From NCBI GenBank assembly GCA_024998815.1, contig JACEUQ010000003.1, forward strand, positions 259,900 through 323,899: DNA of 64,000 nucleotides. The letters are read 5' to 3'. Both the position numbers and the translations under genes were made by a program. The notes below the pieces were generated by a model. That model had not been told where the DNA came from, searched no databases, and worked only from the letters and a program-made list of their open reading frames with translations. This document shows, one piece after another, positions 12,763-48,926 of the stretch. This DNA is from Opitutus sp. GTDB taxonomy: Bacteria; Verrucomicrobiota; Verrucomicrobiia; Opitutales; Opitutaceae. Positions within the stretch are counted from its first letter, which is position 1. Each line of letters begins with the position of its first letter.

Positions 12763-12890
12763 ACCTTGAGCTCACGCTCAGGGCCACGCCCGGCCCAAGA
12801 AATCCTCCCACCACCTTGAGCTCACGCTCAGGGCCACACCCGGCCCAAGAAATCCTCCCACCACCCTGAGCTCACGCTCAGGGCCACGCC
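12763..12890. repeat. Tandem array of a 50-bp unit (about 2.5 copies) containing REP-B
   Basis: CC(T/C)TGAGCTCACGCTCAGGGCCAC at 12764, 12814, 12864 with near-identical linkers; a REP-B variant follows at 12940-12963. Confidence 0.9.
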
Positions 12891-15097: not shown

Positions 15098-15385
15098 GGG
15101 CGCATCCCAGTTTCTGAAAAGGGGGACCTGTGGCCCTGAGCGTGAGCTCAGGGATTACGCGGTATTTGCGCATCCAGACCCTGAGCTCACGCTCAGGGCC
15201 ACGCACCTGAATGCCCCTCCTCGTAGCCTTGCGCGTGAGCGCAGGGTGTTTTGCCCCACCCGTATCCCTGAGCTTCCCTGAGCTCACGCTCAGGGCCACG
15301 CACCGTTTCGCTGAGCACGAACCTACACTAGGACCCGTTTTTTCCAGCGAAAAGCAGCTCACTATTCAAAAACTGGGATGCGCCC
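15098..15385. mobile_element. 288-bp MITE (inverted sister of 3872-4067) carrying extra REP-B units
   Basis: 16-bp perfect TIR GGGCGCATCCCAGTTT; 8-bp direct repeat CCTAACCC at 15090-15097 and 15386-15393. Confidence 0.85.
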
Positions 15386-17943: not shown

Positions 17944-18013
17944 CCCTGAGCTCACGCTCAAGGCCACGAGGACTGTGTTAGCGAAGCGTGTGGCCTTGAG
18001 CGTGAGCTCAAGG
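17944..18013. repeat. REP-B inverted pair
   Basis: CCCTGAGCTCACGCTCAAGGCCAC / GTGGCCTTGAGCGTGAGCTCAAGG; spacer resembles that at 22480-22501. Confidence 0.9.
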
Positions 18014-20279: not shown

Positions 20280-20554
20280 GACGAGGAGGAAAAGAGGGGG
20301 ATGGAGAAACGAGTGCGGGCCGCAACCCATGAAGCGGGGATTCCCCTGTATTCGGCGCAAACCCCTTCCGGCTTAAGCCCAAATCAGCAAATGCTCTAGA
20401 TTGGGTGGTTTTTAAGGTGTTTTCCGGCCCCTGAGCGGCCCGAAGCGCTAGACCGGAAGGGGACATGCGGCTCGCCCCACCCACCCTGAGCTCACGCTCA
20501 GGGCCTGGAGTTTGGCCCCAAAAGCAGGTGGATGCGAAGCGGCCGGAGGCCCGG

Positions 20555-21997
20555 TTACGCAGCGCGGAAGAGTGCTTCAGCCAAGAAGGGTGGCGCTTTT
20601 GATGAGTTCGTGGAGGGAGGGTCGGTCGACGTGAAGTCGGAGAAACTCTCTGGGGCGATCTGGTCGGCCCAGCATTCGCTGCGCAGGGTGCGCAAGAGGT
20701 CCCCCGTGGAACTGGTCGCAGGCGAGGCGCCCGAAGAGTGCGTGCGCCATTTGGGCGGGCGAAGATGCGGCGGCGGATCAGGGGTTTGCCCCGCAGGATC
20801 GCCGAAGAGCAGGGCGGCGATTAACAACAGCGCATAGGCGGCGACGGTGGCGGCGGGTTGGTTGCGGTTGGAGGCGGCGGTGCGCAGTTGTGCCTGGCCG
20901 GTGCCGATCAGGGTTTTCTCATCCCGGAAGTTTCCCTCGATGCCCCAACGCCAGAGGTAATACTGGAGTTGGTCACCCACGGGCATATCCGGGTCGGTGC
21001 AAACCAAGAAGGCAGGCTGGCGATAGAGCAGCTTCGAGCCTGCGCGCAATCGGTAGCCCACCGGGGCGATCACCATGACTTGCAACGGGAGCGTCGCCCC
21101 GGCTTTACGCCACAGCACCGGCCCGAGGGTCTTGATTTTAAAGGTGTGCTTTTTTCCGGCCGCATAAGCCTCGACGCTTTGCCAGGCCACGGTGTCGTCG
21201 GTGCGCAGCTCTTCCGGGGTCTGGACCGGCGCGCCATAGACCGGCGGGCGACCGGTGGCCGCGGGTGGTCCAGGCAGGGCGTTGAGCACGGCGTCCCGGC
21301 GGATCCGGCCGATATAAACGGTCTTGGCGGGCAGGCCCTTGAGTACGACCGCATTGGTGTAACTGTCATCGCCGGCGACCACCAGTTTGCGCGTGTCTGG
21401 CAGCGCCTGGCGAAGCTGCTGGATGCGGGCGAGCGCGACGACATTAAGCCGCTGCTGTTTTTTCTTCTCCGTGTACTGCTGAACCTCGTCGGTAGTGGCT
21501 TTTTTACCCGGCTTTGGCGGCGTCGGCGCGTGGGTGAAATCCACCGGAATCATCCGGGCGTGTCCGTCGGAACCAGGCCAGGCCGCAGAGAGTTGCACAT
21601 AGCGCTGGCCGCGCACCAGGTTGGTTTGGAACGCGGGGCCGAGCGGATCGCGTTTCCAGCCGACGCCGTCGATCTTGACCCCGGTTTTGCGTACCAGGGT
21701 GTCATCGATGGCGGCCACCAACGGGGTAAGCGCCGGCAGGTTTACCTCAAGCTCATGGAGGACCGTGCGGAAAAGCCCCGCCGGCTTCACCCGGTCACGC
21801 GAATACAACCGGTAGTCGGCCGTCCAGTCCTGCTGGGCACGCCCGCACAGACAAATCAGGTTGGTAAGAGTCCCCCGGCACGGTGAAACCAGTGCCGCCA
21901 TGAGATGCCCCTGCAGTCTCCGGGCGCACTCGGGGGCGGCGCAAGCCGCAGCACAAGCCCGTTTCATAAGTCGTCCCAGCCGATCGGATAAACCCAA
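20555..21997 (-). CDS. DDE transposase (IS701-like/DDE_5-type); frame actually opens at the slippery site 22009
   Basis: AAIDDTLVRKTG, VVAGDDSY, YLWRWGIEGNFRDEK. Confidence 0.88.
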   Translation of the reverse strand: MGLSDRLGRLMKRACAAACAAPECARRLQGHLMAALVSPCRGTLTNLICLCGRAQQDWTADYRLYSRDRVKPAGLFRTVLHELEVNLPALTPLVAAIDDTLVRKTGVKIDGVGWKRDPLGPAFQTNLVRGQRYVQLSAAWPGSDGHARMIPVDFTHAPTPPKPGKKATTDEVQQYTEKKKQQRLNVVALARIQQLRQALPDTRKLVVAGDDSYTNAVVLKGLPAKTVYIGRIRRDAVLNALPGPPAATGRPPVYGAPVQTPEELRTDDTVAWQSVEAYAAGKKHTFKIKTLGPVLWRKAGATLPLQVMVIAPVGYRLRAGSKLLYRQPAFLVCTDPDMPVGDQLQYYLWRWGIEGNFRDEKTLIGTGQAQLRTAASNRNQPAATVAAYALLLIAALLFGDPAGQTPDPPPHLRPPKWRTHSSGASPATSSTGDLLRTLRSECWADQIAPESFSDFTSTDPPSTNSSKAPPFLAEALFRAA

Positions 21998-22221
21998 CTG
22001 GACTTTTTTTTAACGCCTACGTCCACCAGCTCGGGCGTGACCGGCATAACGGGCGCGACCAGACTGCGTGAGAGGACCAAATGATGCGCGTCGGTGACGG
22101 TCCACTCGACGGCCTCCGACTTGGCGAACCCCATCGTCTGGGCGATGGAAGCGGGTAATGTCACATACCACTGCTCACTGTTTTTGCGGATGATGCGCTG
22201 AACTTTGGTGGTGGTGCTCAT
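21964..22221 (-). CDS. AbrB/MazE/SpoVT-type DNA-binding domain protein (IS orfA)
   Basis: KVQRIIRKNSEQWYVTLPASIAQTMGFAKSEAVEWTVTDAHHLVLSR; 85 aa; overlaps orfB across A_AAA_AAG. Confidence 0.75.
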   Translation of the reverse strand: MSTTTKVQRIIRKNSEQWYVTLPASIAQTMGFAKSEAVEWTVTDAHHLVLSRSLVAPVMPVTPELVDVGVKKKSSWVYPIGWDDL

Positions 22222-22325
22222 GGTCCGACACCATCGTTCATGGCCACGCTTTTTCCCATGGGCCCGACGCCCCATTTATCTCTACGGCCTTCTCCGGGCC
22301 AACTAGTCAGAGGCCAAACTCCAGA

Positions 22326-22593
22326 CCTTGAGCTCACGCTCAAGGCCACGTTCGGGCGGGTGCGGCCTGGAGTGTGCCTTTGCCTGGGTGGCTTTGGCTC
22401 GGTGTGGCTTCGTGCGTGAGCACGAGGTGTTTTTTCTGGCTGCGGTGCGCCGAATCCTTGAGCTCACGCTCAAGGCCACAAGGAGTGTGTTCGCGAAGAG
22501 TGTGGCCTTGAGCGTGAGCTCAAGGATTCGGCTGATCTGCGTTCGACTAGTCAGGGGCCAAACTCCAGACCCTGAGCTCACGCTCAGGGCCAC
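22326..22593. repeat. Cluster of four REP-B units plus a solo IS right end (22546-22568)
   Basis: REP-B at 22326, 22456, 22502, 22570; ACTAGTCAGGGGCCAAACTCCAG matches the IS right end with 1 mismatch. Confidence 0.9.
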
Positions 22594-22669
22594 GCCCGGC
22601 ACGGGAACTCGTTTGTGATCGGGCGCTAAAAATCCTGTCCTTTCCCCGGCGTTTGCCTATCTCCGGCTG

Positions 22670-28970: not shown

Positions 28971-30434
28971 CAACGGTGTCCAAGTTTTAGATCTATGGGT
29001 TGGCATAGAGCAGTTTAAGTTGCGGCAGCAGATCTGAAATAGGGCAAGAAGAGAACCAATGTGAGCGCAACCAGCGGAGAAGTTTCACACTGCGCTGAAG
29101 CGGTCGCAATACGGTTGTGAGTAAGGAGCAAAGAAGCCGGTCATTTTTTTTGGCGGTCGCGATTTGGTCGTCTAATCGTTTTTGTTGCCGACGGAGGCCC
29201 GCCTCATTTTTGATTTGATAATCTCGTTCTAATTTTTGCTCAAACAGGACCAGTAGGTTATGGGTTAGGCAAAGAAAATGGGCCTGTATTTGCTTGGCGG
29301 TTGAGCTCGACGCCCACGCCTTGGATTCCTCCAGCTTGTTTTTAAATTGATCGAAAACCTTTTCAATCTCCCAGCGTTTTTTATAAAGCCAGGCGAGAAG
29401 CCCTGGCGGTAAGTCAAAAACGCTGGTGATGAACTCATACACCTCACCACTGACTGGATCGCGGTATCGTATTAAGCGCACACGCACCTGATGGGCGGCG
29501 ATGACTATTTCATCCGCTATGACGCCATGATTAATGGGATCAGCACGATCAAACAACTTCGAAGCGAAGGGCTCAAACAGGAGATTTTCTTTGGTGCGTG
29601 AAAGAAAATAGACGCCGGCAGTTTGCTTCCAGTTATGCCAGAGAGGAAAATCAAGGCCTGCGCGATCCCAGATCCAAAGAACTTTCTTGCCGGTCGGCTC
29701 CCCCATACGCAAAGCATTAGAGCCGAGTCGCTTGATCACGCTCATATCGTGTTCTTTTTTGCCCTCAGTGAGTGCAAGATGTTGCATGGCATGAGTTCGA
29801 ATATTAAGGGCATATAAATGTCCTACCGGCCAACGGCGTTCATCAATTTTCTGATCGTGCGAAGCCGCCCCATGCCAATGACCGTCGCCGGCATAGAGGG
29901 CATAATTATCAACGGCAGCGGGCAGTTCGGTAAAGTTTTCGAGCAGGGCGGTGGCCTGCACCGAAACATCCATTAATAAAGCCAACCTGCGTTCGCTTTT
30001 CAGTACTTCAAAGAAGTGCCCCGTAGCGGGACAAGACTCGAACAAGGAACCGACTTGTTGAAGAAAACCGCGACCGCTTCGAGGATCCGATAGAGCTCTG
30101 GTAATACCAAGCCGAAGGAATGCATCGTCAGTCAATTCCGGGCATTGACGCGCGTACCTAGAAGCGGACGCGAGTCCGGTAAGCGGCCCGAAAAATACTT
30201 CGTTTAAAGCGAGGGGATGAAGTGTAGCCATGAGGCCCAAAAAAATTTTTACATGTGCCTCGTAAAGCCTTATATTGAAGTATTTTAAGGCCAATTAACA
30301 CCCGCCGCAACACACGTAATTGGCATGGCTCGACCCCCAGTCCGTGCTGGTTCGCGACGGCCCCAAAGGGGCGCTTCCGAGCGCTGTGTGACGCCCCCCT
30401 GCACAGAAAATACTTCAAAACTTGGACACCGTTG
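28971..30434 (-). mobile_element. IS4-family insertion sequence (1464 bp)
   Basis: 18-bp TIR CAACGGTGTCCAAGTTTT; no target duplication seen. Confidence 0.85.
28993..30231 (-). CDS. IS4 family transposase
   Basis: YAGDGHW, WIWDRAGLDF, LYKKRWEIEKVFDQFK (YREK-like signature). Confidence 0.88.
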   Translation of the reverse strand: MATLHPLALNEVFFGPLTGLASASRYARQCPELTDDAFLRLGITRALSDPRSGRGFLQQVGSLFESCPATGHFFEVLKSERRLALLMDVSVQATALLENFTELPAAVDNYALYAGDGHWHGAASHDQKIDERRWPVGHLYALNIRTHAMQHLALTEGKKEHDMSVIKRLGSNALRMGEPTGKKVLWIWDRAGLDFPLWHNWKQTAGVYFLSRTKENLLFEPFASKLFDRADPINHGVIADEIVIAAHQVRVRLIRYRDPVSGEVYEFITSVFDLPPGLLAWLYKKRWEIEKVFDQFKNKLEESKAWASSSTAKQIQAHFLCLTHNLLVLFEQKLERDYQIKNEAGLRRQQKRLDDQIATAKKNDRLLCSLLTTVLRPLQRSVKLLRWLRSHWFSSCPISDLLPQLKLLYANP

Positions 30435-43826: not shown

Positions 43827-44941
43827 GTGCTTACTTGCAATAATAAGTGATATTGTATCCGCTTTGTAGATGGGACGAAAAGCCGTGCGAATCACTTGTA
43901 GCGAGGGGGATCAGCAATCCCTAGAAAAACGGGCAACCAGCCGGATTGAGTCGAGGCAGCGAGTTGAGCGCGCCCGGATGATCCTTGGGTGCGTGAGTGG
44001 CGAGCAGGTGCAAGAGGTGGCGCGCCGCTGCAACACCAGGCCGAACACCGTAATAAAGTGGAGGGATCGCTTTGTGCTGCTTGGCATGAAGGGGCTGGAT
44101 GATGCGGCACGGCCGGGCGCGAAGCGCACCTACGGTGAGGACTTTCGAGATCGGGTGCTGGCTTTATTGGAAGGGCCACCCCCTCCGGGGCAGGCGCGCT
44201 GGGATGGTCCAGCGGTGGCCCGTGTGCTCGGCGGCTCGGTGCACGCGGTCTGGCGAGTGCTGCGCAAGGAGGGCATTTGCCTGCAGCGCCAGCGCTCGTG
44301 GTGCGTGAGCACTGACAAGCAGTTCGCAGCCAAGGCAGCCGATATCGTCGGGCTCTACCTGAGCCCACCGGAAAAGGCATTGGTGATAAGTGTGGATGAA
44401 AAGCCTGGCATCCAAGCCCTAGAGCGCGCCACCGGTTACGTGGAGACCGACAATGGTAAAATCGTCCAGGGACTCAAAAGCACCTACAAGCGCCACGGTA
44501 CACTCAACTTGTTCGCTGCCCTTGATGTGGCCACGGGCTTGATCAAGACGCAGAAAACCACCCTTAAGCGCCGGGAGGAGTTCCTGCTGTTCATGGACCA
44601 AGTGGTGGCGGATCACCCGCCCGAGAGAGAACTCCACGTGATTTTGGATAATTATTGCACCCACAAAAAGTGCGACGCTTGGCTCGCTCGGCACCCCAAT
44701 GTCCACTTCCACTTTACCCCAACCTCGGCGAGTTGGCTCAATCAAGTTGAAATCTGGTTCGGCATACTAACAAGGAAGGCGCTACGGGGCGCGAACTTCA
44801 GAAGCGTCGCCGAACTTAGTCAGGCCATTGACGCTTTCGTCGCCGCCTACCTGCCCAATGCCAAGCCGTTCAAGTGGCGCAAGCGCGAGGTCAAGGGAAG
44901 CCAACTCATAAATACTATCATTAATCTACGCAATTAAGCAC
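43827..44941 (+). mobile_element. IS630-family insertion sequence (1115 bp)
   Basis: Ends GTGCTTA(C/A)TTGC; TA duplication in a CTAG target. Confidence 0.92.
43870..44937 (+). CDS. IS630 family transposase
   Basis: SVDEKPGIQAL, YKRHGTLNLFAALD, ILDNYCTHK, TPTSASWLNQVEIWF. Confidence 0.95.
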   Translation: MGRKAVRITCSEGDQQSLEKRATSRIESRQRVERARMILGCVSGEQVQEVARRCNTRPNTVIKWRDRFVLLGMKGLDDAARPGAKRTYGEDFRDRVLALLEGPPPPGQARWDGPAVARVLGGSVHAVWRVLRKEGICLQRQRSWCVSTDKQFAAKAADIVGLYLSPPEKALVISVDEKPGIQALERATGYVETDNGKIVQGLKSTYKRHGTLNLFAALDVATGLIKTQKTTLKRREEFLLFMDQVVADHPPERELHVILDNYCTHKKCDAWLARHPNVHFHFTPTSASWLNQVEIWFGILTRKALRGANFRSVAELSQAIDAFVAAYLPNAKPFKWRKREVKGSQLINTIINLRN

Positions 44942-45483
44942 TAGAATCGTGTGGGCCAGTTCGGCGACGCTCATCGACTGGCCGTAGCCGGCGTTGAACA
45001 CACCGGTCACACCGGGACGTTCTGCAAGAAAGGCGAGGGCGCCGACGATGTCCTTCACATAGATAAAGTCACGGGTCTGCCCGCCGTCGCCAAAAATGGT
45101 GATCGGCTCGTGCGCGACCGCCTTCTGGATAAAAATCGGCACCGCCGCCGCGTAAGCGCCTCGCGGGTCCTGACGCGGGCCGAAGACGTTGAAGAAGCGC
45201 AGAGCGGCGGTTTCGAGCAGGCCCTCGCGTGCATAGAGGGCACAGTAGTATTCACCGTCGAGTTTGGTGATGCCGTAGGGGCTGCGCGGGTCCGGCACCA
45301 TGGTTTCCACTTTGGGCTGCTCCGGGTTTTCGCCATACACGGCGGCAGTGCTCGCAAAGCAGAGTTTTTTCACGCCGTGATTCTTGCACGAGGCCAAGAC
45401 ATTGAGAAGTCCGTGGATATTGATATCCACGGTCTGGAGTTTGGCCCCAAAAGCAGGTGGATGCGAAGCGGCCGGAGGCCCGG

Positions 45484-46926
45484 TTACGCAGCGCGGAAGA
45501 GTGCTTCAGCCAAGAAGGGTGGCGCTTTTGATGAGTTCGTGGAGGGAGGGTCGGTCGACGTGAAGTCGGAGAAACTCTCTGGGGCGATCTGGTCGGCCCA
45601 GCATTCGCTGCGCAGGGTGCGCAAGAGGTCCCCCGTGGAACTGGTCGCAGGCGAGGCGCCCGAAGAGTGCGTGCGCCATTTGGGCGGGCGAAGATGCGGC
45701 GGCGGATCAGGGGTTTGCCCCGCAGGATCGCCGAAGAGCAGGGCGGCGATTAACAACAGCGCATAGGCGGCGACGGTGGCGGCGGGTTGGTTGCGGTTGG
45801 AGGCGGCGGTGCGCAGTTGTGCCTGGCCGGTGCCGATCAGGGTTTTCTCATCCCGGAAGTTTCCCTCGATGACCCAACGCCAGAGGTAATACTGGAGTTG
45901 GTCACCCACGGGCATATCCGGGTCGGTGCAAACCAAGAAGGCAGGCTGGCGATAGAGCAGCTTCGAGCCTGCGCGCAATCGGTAGCCCACCGGGGCGATC
46001 ACCATGACTTGCAACGGGAGCGTCGCCCCGGCTTTACGCCACAGCACCGGCCCGAGGGTCTTGATTTTAAAGGTGTGCTTTTTTCCGGCCGCATAAGCCT
46101 CGACGCTTTGCCAGGCCACGGTGTCGTCGGTGCGCAGCTCTTCCGGGGTCTGGACCGGCGCGCCATAGACCGGCGGGCGACCGGTGGCCGCGGGTGGTCC
46201 AGGCAGGGCGTTGAGCACGGCGTCCCGGCGGATCCGGCCGATATAAACGGTCTTGGCGGGCAGGCCCTTGAGTACGACCGCATTGGTGTAACTGCCATCG
46301 CCGGCGACCACCAGTTTGCGCGTGTCTGGCAGCGCCTGGCGAAGCTGCTGGATGCGGGCGAGCGCGACGACATTAAGCCGCTGCTGTTTTTTCTTCTCCG
46401 TGTACTGCTGAACCTCGTCGGTAGTGGCTTTTTTACCCGGCTTTGGCGGCGTCGGCGCGTGGGTGAAATCCACCGGAATCATCCGGGCGTGTCCGTCGGA
46501 ACCAGGCCAGGCCGCAGAGAGTTGCACATAGCGCTGGCCGCGCACCAGGTTGGTTTGGAACGCGGGGCCGAGCGGATCGCGTTTCCAGCCGACGCCGTCG
46601 ATCTTGACCCCGGTTTTGCGTACCAGGGTGTCATCGATGGCGGCCACCAACGGGGTAAGCGCCGGCAGGTTTACCTCAAGCTCATGGAGGACCGTGCGGA
46701 AAAGCCCCGCCGGCTTCACCCGGTCACGCGAATACAACCGGTAGTCGGCCGTCCAGTCCTGCTGGGCACGCCCGCACAGACAAATCAGGTTGGTAAGAGT
46801 CCCCCGGCACGGTGAAACCAGTGCCGCCATGAGATGCCCCTGCAGTCTCCGGGCGCACTCGGGGGCGGCGCAAGCCGCAGCACAAGCCCGTTTCATAAGT
46901 CGTCCCAGCCGATCGGATAAACCCAA
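45484..46926 (-). CDS. DDE transposase (IS701-like), copy 2
   Basis: Same as 20555-21997 except GDGSY and RWVIE. Confidence 0.88.
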   Translation of the reverse strand: MGLSDRLGRLMKRACAAACAAPECARRLQGHLMAALVSPCRGTLTNLICLCGRAQQDWTADYRLYSRDRVKPAGLFRTVLHELEVNLPALTPLVAAIDDTLVRKTGVKIDGVGWKRDPLGPAFQTNLVRGQRYVQLSAAWPGSDGHARMIPVDFTHAPTPPKPGKKATTDEVQQYTEKKKQQRLNVVALARIQQLRQALPDTRKLVVAGDGSYTNAVVLKGLPAKTVYIGRIRRDAVLNALPGPPAATGRPPVYGAPVQTPEELRTDDTVAWQSVEAYAAGKKHTFKIKTLGPVLWRKAGATLPLQVMVIAPVGYRLRAGSKLLYRQPAFLVCTDPDMPVGDQLQYYLWRWVIEGNFRDEKTLIGTGQAQLRTAASNRNQPAATVAAYALLLIAALLFGDPAGQTPDPPPHLRPPKWRTHSSGASPATSSTGDLLRTLRSECWADQIAPESFSDFTSTDPPSTNSSKAPPFLAEALFRAA

Positions 46927-47150
46927 CTGGACTTTTTTTTAACGCCTACGTCCACCAGCTCGGGCGTGACCGGCATAACGGGCGCGACCAGACTGCGTGA
47001 GAGGACCAAATGATGCGCGTCGGTGACGGTCCACTCGACGGCCTCCGACTTGGCGAACCCCATCGTCTGGGCGATGGAAGCGGGTAATGTCACATACCAC
47101 TGCTCACTGTTTTTGCGGATGATGCGCTGAACTTTGGTGGTGGTGCTCAT
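46893..47150 (-). CDS. AbrB/MazE-type orfA, copy 2
   Basis: Identical translation to 21964-22221. Confidence 0.75.
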   Translation of the reverse strand: MSTTTKVQRIIRKNSEQWYVTLPASIAQTMGFAKSEAVEWTVTDAHHLVLSRSLVAPVMPVTPELVDVGVKKKSSWVYPIGWDDL

Positions 47151-48256
47151 GGTCCGACACCATCGTTCATGGCCACGCTTTTTCCCATGGGCCCGACGCC
47201 CCATTTATCTCTACGGCCTTCTCCGGGCCAACTAGTCAGAGGCCAAACTCCAGCCTCGGCTTTGCCGAGTGTATCGATCAGGCGGGAAAACGGTAGCGGC
47301 GTGTTGATGAACATGTCCGCCATCCGGCCGTAATCGCGCTCGATTTCGGCCACTCGATGGGCTGGCGGAACGAGGCGTAAACTGCCCGGTATCGCCAAGT
47401 CGTAGTGCGCCCAGCTCGATGCGAAAAAACGGCTTTTGTGACGAACGACCCGAGCCAGCACATCAAAGCGAGTCAGGGCCGCTGCACTGGTTGGATGCGT
47501 CAGCAGGGCGGCAAAATCGGAGTAGTGCCGCGAGAAGCGGTCGCGCATCGGCTGTTCGGCCGGCCGGTGGTATTCAGCATGAAGGATGGTCGCCTTTTCC
47601 CAGAACGTGCGCTCCACCTCCAAGGCGACGACGCCACCATCGGGGGCGACCATTTCATGCGGGAATTCCTCCGCCACGATGGAGCGGACCGTGTGGTTTC
47701 CGGTGGGCTGTTGATCGGTGAGGGAGCCAAACTCGACCTTCACCTCAGGCCGCACGTAGGTCTCGTAAGGCACGGCGACCGGATAATGAAACAGAATGAC
47801 CGGCGAATGGGTGGCCGGATCGATGATGGCTTCGATTTTCCATGAGCGAGCAGGTAGGTTGCCCAGTTGCACCGAGAGCGCTTCGGTAATCAGCGGGGCG
47901 ATTTGGTCGCGCACAATCTCGGCACAGCGCGCCTCCAGTTGCTTTTGATTTTTATCGCGCTGTGTGCGCGAGGCCGCGTCCTCCAAGGTGGATTCGGCGA
48001 TGCCGAGGAAGGCAGGGCTGAGCGAAAGGTCGATGTCCTCCGAGAAACGGGCGATGATGTTAAAAACCTTCGAGAGGGAGGTGCCTCCTTTAAAGACCAG
48101 GTGCGGTCGCAGGGTGGGCAGAGCGAAAATTTCACGCAGCAACCAGCACACCCAGAAATCTTTTTCCACGAGCCAGGGGCGCACGCCACGACGGGCGGCC
48201 GCTTCGGTGAAAAACGCGGTATGATCGGCTACGGGGAGGCGGGCAAAGTTACGCAT
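47147..48256 (-). CDS. AbiEii-type nucleotidyltransferase toxin; native C-terminus replaced by IS sequence
   Basis: VEKDFWVCW, LVFKGGTSLSK, RFSEDIDL, RTFWEKATILH, SRHYSD; native part ends at 47254. Confidence 0.9.
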   Translation of the reverse strand: MRNFARLPVADHTAFFTEAAARRGVRPWLVEKDFWVCWLLREIFALPTLRPHLVFKGGTSLSKVFNIIARFSEDIDLSLSPAFLGIAESTLEDAASRTQRDKNQKQLEARCAEIVRDQIAPLITEALSVQLGNLPARSWKIEAIIDPATHSPVILFHYPVAVPYETYVRPEVKVEFGSLTDQQPTGNHTVRSIVAEEFPHEMVAPDGGVVALEVERTFWEKATILHAEYHRPAEQPMRDRFSRHYSDFAALLTHPTSAAALTRFDVLARVVRHKSRFFASSWAHYDLAIPGSLRLVPPAHRVAEIERDYGRMADMFINTPLPFSRLIDTLGKAEAGVWPLTSWPGEGRRDKWGVGPMGKSVAMNDGVGP

Positions 48257-48926
48257 GGTCGGAATCCTCGGCGATGGAGCGCAGCTGCGGGCGCATCCAT
48301 GCCGGGGCGAATTGGCTATCTTTGAGTAAATTTTTTCGGTCGGCCTCCGTGAGCACGGTGCGCAGGGTGGTGATCCGTTCTGGGGTGATGTGGTCTTTGC
48401 CGACATGCCGCAGGGCCTGAATGACCGTGCCGCTCAGCCGCCCGCTCGTTTCCAAGTTGCGAGGAGTCGTTCGCCGAAATCGGATTTCTTGCCGACCGAT
48501 CTTAACCAAACGAGTTGGACCGTCGGTTAGGAAGACGATTTTGGCGGGCACCTGTTCGGAAAGACGGAGGAGGTTGGCTGCATACGCGCCCGAGGGGAGC
48601 AGGCGTATGCGGTCGCTACCGACAAGGGCTTGAGCGATGGCGGCGGGATCGGGCGATAGCAGCCCGATACGCGGATGGGACTTGGGGTAGTCATAGAGCC
48701 CCCGAGTGAGCTTGCGGATTTTGCCCTGCGCGACCAACCGACCAAGCACGACACCGACGACACGAGGGTCGCCAAGATCGGCAAACGCTTTGGGGGTGAA
48801 GACCCACCCCCTGCCGTTGCCATTTATTCGTGCTAATAGCTTTTTTGATGACACTTGGGTAACCGTTATAGTCATCATATGTTGAAAAAACACCCTATTA
48901 TTTTCAACAAAAACTTTACGATTCAT
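48249..48926 (-). CDS. AbiEi-type antitoxin (DUF6088-like); exact start uncertain
   Basis: GKIRKLTRGLYDYP, LPSGAYAANLLRLSEQVPAKIVFLTDG; overlaps the toxin start. Confidence 0.85.
   Translation of the reverse strand: MNRKVFVENNRVFFQHMMTITVTQVSSKKLLARINGNGRGWVFTPKAFADLGDPRVVGVVLGRLVAQGKIRKLTRGLYDYPKSHPRIGLLSPDPAAIAQALVGSDRIRLLPSGAYAANLLRLSEQVPAKIVFLTDGPTRLVKIGRQEIRFRRTTPRNLETSGRLSGTVIQALRHVGKDHITPERITTLRTVLTEADRKNLLKDSQFAPAWMRPQLRSIAEDSDHA

Follow-up and report, generated by a model that had tools for sequence, protein, structure and literature searches.

Two nearly identical copies of an insertion sequence (IS) lie on the minus strand of a 64-kb window of an Opitutus sp. genome (64,000 nucleotides of contig JACEUQ010000003.1, positions 259,900 to 323,899 of the forward strand, numbered here from 1), and in each of them a small open reading frame (ORF), orfA, overlaps a transposase frame at a run of eight adenines (A8). 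Comparison with related elements leads us to read this as a two-ORF IS that makes its full transposase, OrfAB, by recoding at the A8 run, a reading to which we assign a probability of about 0.8. Normal decoding would yield OrfA only, a protein of 85 amino acids (aa) with an AbrB/MazE-type DNA-binding domain, while at the run (22011..22004) a fraction of expression events would enter the -1 frame and give rise to a predicted OrfAB of 555 aa, in which the AbrB-like domain, a flexible lysine-rich linker and a Tn5-like DDE transposase are joined, and which would be the active transposase. Two routes could lead to this product: RNA polymerase may slip on the run, adding one A to the mRNA, or the ribosome may slip by -1 on the heptamer A_AAA_AAG. 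We infer that recoding occurs and, by analogy with InsA of IS1 and OrfA of IS911, that OrfA alone may act as a regulator; as for the route, the pattern of run conservation somewhat favors polymerase slippage over a ribosomal shift as the family-wide mechanism.

In the first copy, orfA spans 21964..22221 and encodes an AbrB/MazE-like region (residues 1-52), after which come a disordered linker, the residues KKK and a tail of 12 aa that runs to a TGA stop, its minus strand reading ...GGC GTT AAA AAA AAG TCC AGT TGG ... TTA TGA across the junction. The candidate recoding site (22003..22011) consists of A8 at 22011..22004 and a G at 22003, and holds the heptamer A_AAA_AAG (22009..22003) in phase, with its first base at codon position 3 of orfA. 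The transposase frame (20555..22009), which is -1 relative to orfA and encodes a DDE_5/IS701-type core with a Tn5-like fold, reads TAA (22012-22010) AAA AAA GTC CAG TTG (21997) ... ATG (21967) and thus opens at the run; the only canonical starts near the junction are this TTG, where the mechanically called ORF begins, and this ATG. A -1 slip is predicted to give ...GVKKKVQLGLSDRL..., with the junction GVKKKVQLG, in a product of 555 aa in total. The second copy (orfA 46893..47150, A8G 46932..46940, transposase frame 45484..46938) carries an identical 25-mer at its junction (46922..46946). The coordinates given for orfA and the heptamer in the preliminary description of this DNA all hold, those of the heptamer in copy 2 (46932-46938) included, and the TAA that it reported just upstream of the A8 run, with the -1 transposase frame opening there, was confirmed. 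We place the start of orfA at ATG 22221 and not at the upstream ATG 22275, because homologues begin with MGYPTKVQLI, the aligned counterpart of MSTTTKVQRI. Taken by itself, A8 lacks significance in the window, where 2.6 such runs are expected and five occur, a number that 18 of 100 shuffles equal or exceed, so that the case rests on the conserved position of the run among homologues.

These homologues were drawn from a scan of one genome per species, which returned 525 transposase relatives, and the survey covered the best 80 of the 525 loci. The surveyed loci belong to at least eight phyla (Verrucomicrobiota, Acidobacteriota, Planctomycetota, Lentisphaerota, Bacteroidota, Desulfobacterota, Chloroflexota, Gemmatimonadota, Actinomycetota), and an orfA homologue lies directly 5' of the transposase in 78 of the 80. 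The A run and frame offset on which the preliminary description was built recur in most of them: of the 78 loci with orfA, 70 have the transposase in the -1 frame with respect to it (six have it at +1 and two in frame), and 63 of these 70 have A8 or A9 at the junction, in the forms A9C (31 loci), A8C (28) and A9G (4). Counted by run length alone, the 70 loci comprise 28 with A8, 35 with A9, two with a run of six and five with no run of six or more; the base that follows is C in 59 and G in five. The run is kept in G+C-rich genomes, where AAG equally encodes lysine, and in the clade closest to the window A8G and A9C are exchanged by a G/A substitution that leaves the frame unchanged. Perfect flanking duplications imply a recent insertion, and 27 of the 34 insertions that have them are in the -1 configuration. 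Most of the +1 and in-frame loci differ by one A from siblings in the same genome (L005, A8 versus A9; L036, A7; L044, A9 versus A8). The clade is large, with at least 8000 OrfA clusters at 90% identity and, for the relative P0069, 2457 matches among 50%-identity representatives; the PLSDB plasmids contain only transposase relatives of ~27% identity that have no OrfA region, the clade itself being absent there.

With G after the run in no more than five of 70 loci, the family has not conserved the AAG heptamer; what is conserved is a length of at least eight. This conserved length, together with the unconserved AAG and the lack of a stimulator, makes polymerase slippage at least as likely as a ribosomal -1 shift. 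For IS elements, the published mark of transcriptional slippage is a run of 8-9 A where two ORFs overlap (PMC1088944), and insertions of A predominate in slippage, an added A being equivalent to a -1 shift (PMC1088944; PMC5009743). The preliminary description had proposed a strictly ribosomal event, i.e. programmed -1 frameshifting in which two tRNA-Lys would re-pair one base back on A_AAA_AAG while the mRNA stays colinear with the DNA, and we regard this as a serious contender that falls short of even odds. It draws strength from the canonical heptamer, which is in phase in the window copy, from the strongly conserved -1 direction, and from the run-less lineages at -1 whose Z_ZZN motifs (A_AAG in L049) could not be used by polymerase slippage. 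An in-phase A_AAA_AAN is also present in every A8 or A9 run of the family whatever its phase, as it is in any run of at least eight A, so that phase alone does not exclude the ribosome. Six A's are enough for a ribosomal -1 slip, for which help usually comes from RNA structure on the downstream side or from a Shine-Dalgarno-like element on the upstream side. Yet the runs are almost never shorter than eight, though A6N would suffice, the following base is usually C, and the phase of the run relative to orfA varies, all three (0, 1 and 2) occurring across the family. Stimulatory RNA structure was not found either: the 113 nt from the run in the window fold no better than shuffles (z -0.2), a hairpin in the window starts directly after the heptamer, too near in comparison with the usual spacing of 5-9 nt, and across 43 non-redundant loci structure is neither conserved nor unusually stable, the mean z being about -0.1 over the 70 nt that follow the site and -0.2 over the 50 nt that precede it. 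No Shine-Dalgarno-like stimulator is conserved near the run. As regards the shiftiness of AAG in this host, the window was searched for tRNA-Lys genes and contains no tRNA genes of any kind. The mechanism named in the preliminary description thus finds no specific support in the family. The A8G copy in the window is compatible with both routes, and since they lead to the same protein, mass spectrometry of the junction peptide cannot separate them.

That the two frames are expressed as one protein is suggested by the way the transposase frame itself has evolved. Its peptide can be aligned between members of different phyla, beginning with the codon that directly follows the run, and a conserved start codon after the run was not found, Met reaching at most 33% in every alignment column and 19 of 48 non-redundant loci having no ATG within 70 codons, which makes independent initiation unlikely. 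In the closest clade, LGLSDRLGRL, which lies 5' of ATG 21967, has three substitutions, and each of them is silent when read in the transposase frame but alters the orfA tail. The AlphaFold model of P0069, a natural fusion, places the KK site within a disordered linker (residues 53-67), and a helix with pLDDT >90 starts five residues after the Lys site; ATG 21967 of the window maps to the middle of this confidently modeled helix. Natural in-frame fusions, which the preliminary description had raised as a question for homologues, do exist. P0069 (locus L081; 544 aa) owes its single frame to an A10 in its contig at the place of the A9 of its siblings, L044 is in frame by virtue of A9 among A8 siblings, and P0340 is in frame with A7. 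The distant relative P0373 (locus L082; 31% identical) is a single ORF of 537 aa whose junction has no A run and whose N-terminus is matched by the OrfA profile (hhalign 90.9%, E 1.2e-6). These fusions, the distant P0373 included, indicate that the joined architecture is viable and that it is an ordinary gene in a distant branch. Taken together, the conserved -1 offset and run, the lack of a conserved start and the natural fusions support the preliminary proposal of an AbrB-DDE fusion of ~555 aa, which, on this comparative evidence, very probably is the transposase.

We consider it improbable that the element makes two separate proteins without recoding, with OrfA as an AbrB-type regulator or accessory DNA-binding subunit and a transposase that starts at ATG 21967 or TTG 21997. 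Gene callers and RefSeq do give the transposase as a protein of its own of 444-474 aa (e.g. P0114 in Luteolibacter, where RefSeq annotates a separate 463-aa transposase), canonical IS701 transposases have no extra N-terminal domain, and an overlap of stop and start codons in some members, described below, would permit coupling to the termination of orfA. Besides the unconserved start, the natural fusions and the position of ATG 21967 inside a confident helix, such an arrangement has to contend with coding conservation in the transposase frame that begins at the run, 5' of any ATG, and it leaves unexplained why the A8/A9 run is conserved at the nucleotide level in G+C-rich genomes.

Several observations nevertheless weigh against recoding at the run as the general way in which a functional transposase is made. 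The orfA stop codon overlaps the transposase-frame ATG, as ATGA in the window (TGA 21966-21964 and ATG 21967-21965 in copy 1, thus 21964-21967; 46893-46896 in copy 2) and as TGATG in L002, L006 and L008, an overlap that is not conserved family-wide. Coupled re-initiation at ATG 21967 could give a shorter, AbrB-less product, which might be regulatory in the manner of the Tn5 inhibitor protein. In the 32-codon overlap, an Acidobacteriota group has an identity of 0.56 in the orfA tail and 0.58 in the transposase frame, which does not discriminate between the two. Moreover, five loci are at -1 without any run of six or more A, four of them (L048, L049, L053, L060) from G+C-rich lineages and the fifth (L069) with a run broken by a C; L053 and L060 come from the same genome, L060 with an intact duplication. 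The run-less sites (L048 ~400-470, L049 ~430-500, L053/L060 ~2340-2420) hold only short Z_ZZN motifs (A_AAG, C_CCC, C_CCA). Without a run, another shift site or independent initiation must operate there. Some of the run-length variants may be homopolymer errors of long-read assemblies. Finally, each window copy has a private missense change beside a catalytic residue, at a position that is invariant or nearly so: GDDSYTN in copy 1 (21366), where the consensus is GDGSYTN, and RWVIE in copy 2 (45872), where RWGIE is invariant. Either copy may thus be impaired or inactive.

The same run-length variation could be taken for a phase switch at the DNA level, in which replication slippage alters the run and transposase comes solely from the rare copies that are in frame (run +1 or -2), and near-identical copies within a genome do vary in this way (L005 with A8 versus A9 in L002, L004 and L030; L044 with A9 versus A8 in ~11 siblings; also A10 in P0069 and A7 in P0340). 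We give this very little weight: in-frame loci are only two of 78, new insertions should inherit an in-frame run, yet those with intact duplications are mostly at -1, and many of the variants come from long-read assemblies, in which homopolymers are prone to error.

The assignment of OrfA to the AbrB type, also made in the preliminary description, has moderate support from profile matches in homologues, from a fold model and from structural matches. The window OrfA itself matches PF04014 (MazE_antitoxin/SpoVT-AbrB) weakly (E 0.006; 16.9 bits, under the cut-off of 24.7), and 25 of 44 OrfA homologues match it at E <=0.01, the best at E 3.6e-7. Among homologues of the 78 loci the first ~52 residues are strongly conserved (MGYPTKVQLIxRKxSEQWYINFPSAVAQAMEFxKGExVEW), and an AlphaFold model built from 44 sequences folds residues 1-52 as beta-beta-alpha-beta-beta with a pLDDT of ~80, the remainder being disordered. 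A sequence search of the Protein Data Bank (PDB) with the OrfA profile was not significant (best E 0.12, C56 of pSSVi), and fold comparison was therefore needed. Foldseek against the PDB ranked MazE first (probability 0.93), followed by C56 of pSSVi, the AbrB N-domain, truncated MazE and SpoVT; eight of the top ten matches are MazE, C56, AbrB-N (three entries), SpoVT or C68, and VapB is also among the matches. The first eight matches have probabilities of 0.69-0.93; the E-values are weak (0.16-0.8 for the best matches, 0.16-1.0 in all), as is to be expected of a domain of ~50 residues. We conclude with moderate confidence, on the strength of this model, that OrfA has an AbrB-like fold, i.e. 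the beta-beta-alpha-beta-beta topology of the AbrB/MazE/SpoVT swapped-hairpin domains as seen in a single-chain model. It differs from these proteins in being IS-encoded and joined to a transposase, and is neither a transition-state regulator nor an antitoxin. The notion that orfA encodes the antitoxin half of a toxin-antitoxin system like MazEF or PrlF, which is echoed by JGI labels on several homologues ('antitoxin component of MazEF' or 'PrlF') and by the weak PF04014 match, is ruled out by gene context, as there is no adjacent toxin gene, the transposase is the sole neighbor inside the inverted repeats, and orfA always lies inside those repeats, directly 5' of the transposase.

The catalytic gene is, to judge from profile and fold, a member of the IS701/DDE_5 branch of the IS4 (Tn5-like) superfamily, in agreement with the IS701-like DDE transposase named in the preliminary description. 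It matches DDE_5 (PF13546) with 41.6 bits, above the cut-off of 27, and its best NCBIfam match is transpos_IS701_3 (NF049999; E 1.5e-45), at 156 bits and thus under the curated cut-off of 170; the modeled structure of a full-length relative matches that of Tn5 transposase (Foldseek E 4e-10). In P0319 and P0374, representatives of more distant DDE_5 relatives with transposases of ~40% identity, an in-frame N-terminal extension resembling a coiled coil takes the place of the AbrB-like domain, which suggests an exchange of the N-terminal module within this branch.

The limits of the element were set by aligning its two copies, which are 99.7% identical over 1830 bp, and by its terminal inverted repeats, CTGGAGTTTGGCC and GGCCAAACTCCAG, which are exact inverted-repeat matches. 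Copy 1 spans 20505..22324 (1820 bp) and copy 2 spans 45434..47253, and most relatives measure 1.75-1.83 kb. The right terminal inverted repeat lies at 20505..20517 and reads GGCCAAACTCCAG on the minus strand, while the left terminal repeat and its subterminal sequence form the 22-mer CTGGAGTTTGGCCTCTGACTAG (22303..22324), which is identical at the end of L081, a locus whose transposase is 55% identical to that of the window. The same ends are kept in relatives down to ~45% protein identity.

In its layout the element resembles IS1 (InsA/InsAB') and the IS3 family (IS911 OrfA/OrfAB), which likewise have a small DNA-binding orfA at the 5' side, a catalytic ORF at -1 and an A-rich site in the overlap. 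In those elements default decoding yields OrfA, and transposase activity belongs to the fusion. Their OrfA is of the helix-turn-helix or zinc-finger type, and IS3 elements usually have a stimulatory hairpin or pseudoknot, whereas here we find an AbrB-like domain, a run of 8-9 A and no stimulator. The match to DDE_5, the best NCBIfam match, the Tn5 fold and the terminal inverted repeats link the element to IS701; IS4/IS701 elements, however, are described as having a single ORF without frameshift, a length of 1400-1550 bp and a 4-bp duplication (PMC2266710), in contrast to the two ORFs joined by putative recoding, the AbrB-like N-terminal domain, the ~1.8 kb length and the hairpin-long duplications seen here. 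At the junction there is a likeness to the slippage IS elements described by Baranov et al. in 2005 (PMC1088944), among them IS630 of Roseiflexus, which have 8-9 A exactly at the orfA/orfB overlap and vary between eight and nine among homologues while the ORF layout is kept; the transposase family is a different one. A 2016 review of recoding names IS1, IS3, IS5 and IS630 as the families that use frameshifting and does not list IS701 (PMC5009743). A literature search on IS701 with frameshifting, on AbrB with transposases and on hairpin or cruciform duplication by IS elements returned no description of this arrangement, the nearest being stem-loop replacement by IS1272. The OrfA/OrfAB logic of IS1 and IS3, with likely slippage as in some IS630 and Deinococcus elements, would thus serve a family that is not known to employ it, and would do so with an unusual DNA-binding domain.

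The insertion sites of the family have a structure of their own. In a set of 60 non-redundant insertions, some 35 are bordered immediately at the two IS ends by direct repeats of 17-32 bp that differ by no more than one mismatch, and each such repeat is a complete hairpin, with a stem of 6-13 bp, a loop of 3-6 nt and usually one unpaired base per side. Examples among loci L001-L081 are the duplications in L007 (616/2389), L028 (272/2096) and L077 (1370/3133), and AGACCGGCAAAGGCCGGTCC is an example of a hairpin target. As every flanking repeat is a whole hairpin, the length of the duplication is set by the structure of the target and varies, and on these flanking sequences we take hairpin targeting to be real and family-wide. 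A likeness exists to IS1272 of the IS1182 family (PMC5678879), a DDE IS that chooses hairpins or inverted repeats as targets, and one pathway in the model proposed for IS1272 would lead to duplication of the entire stem-loop (PMC5678879). IS1272 itself replaces the stem-loop without duplication, whereas the present elements have a full copy of the hairpin on either side, and the transposase family differs. A wider picture, which we offer as tentative and as one that may well prove wrong, would join these strands: a large, multi-phylum, as yet unannotated Tn5-like branch whose enzyme would arise only through A8-9 recoding (probably polymerase slippage), the recoding adding an AbrB domain that would recognize extruded hairpins or cruciforms, much as the preliminary description suggested for the hairpin target, with two strand transfers at the feet of the stem duplicating the whole hairpin (17-32 bp, of variable length) on each side.

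In the window, copy 1 is flanked by an imperfect 22-bp direct repeat with two compensatory differences, GCCTTGAGCGTGAGCTCAAGGT on the left (22325..22346) and GCCCTGAGCGTGAGCTCAGGGT on the right (20483..20504), whereas no repeat of this kind flanks copy 2. REP-like hairpins of one family, CC[C/T]TGAGCGTGAGCTCA[A/G]GG, stand at 15 sites in the 64 kb (0.02 expected), all between 3970 and 22586, e.g. at 12767-12880, 15137-15292, 17947-18010 and 22329-22586, and copy 1 sits between two of these hairpins, inside one cluster. At 22546-22594 a lone IS left end of ~24 nt (CTGGAGTTTGGCCCCTGACTAGT) stands beside another REP hairpin with the spacing of a full copy, and is probably the remnant of an earlier insertion. 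Around copy 2 (flanks 44921-45433 and 47254-48406), an AbiEii-family gene (Pfam E 1e-36) is represented on the left by its 3' end, and the right side holds an NAD-epimerase gene that is 5'-truncated and is without its first ~87 residues; at its opposite end this epimerase gene is interrupted by an IS630-like gene (43870-44937). The missing flanking repeat, together with the position of copy 2 between the AbiEii 3' end and the truncated epimerase, points to an IS-associated deletion or rearrangement. Another A8 run, at 29144-29151, lies in frame within what appears to be the C-terminal part of a different DDE transposase (...YKKRWEIEKVFDQFK...).

For the family as a whole, these results bear first on annotation, as thousands of elements are now labeled 'MazE/PrlF antitoxin' or 'hypothetical protein' ahead of a 5'-shortened 'transposase', and annotation pipelines could gain a frameshift rule for this clade. 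A recoding site in an IS701-like clade would extend the strategy to another major transposase family, one that has been partly defined by its uninterrupted gene, and an AbrB-type domain would be an addition to the known DNA-binding modules of transposases. The strict duplication of hairpins makes these elements a candidate system for a DDE enzyme that would read the structure of DNA, not its sequence.

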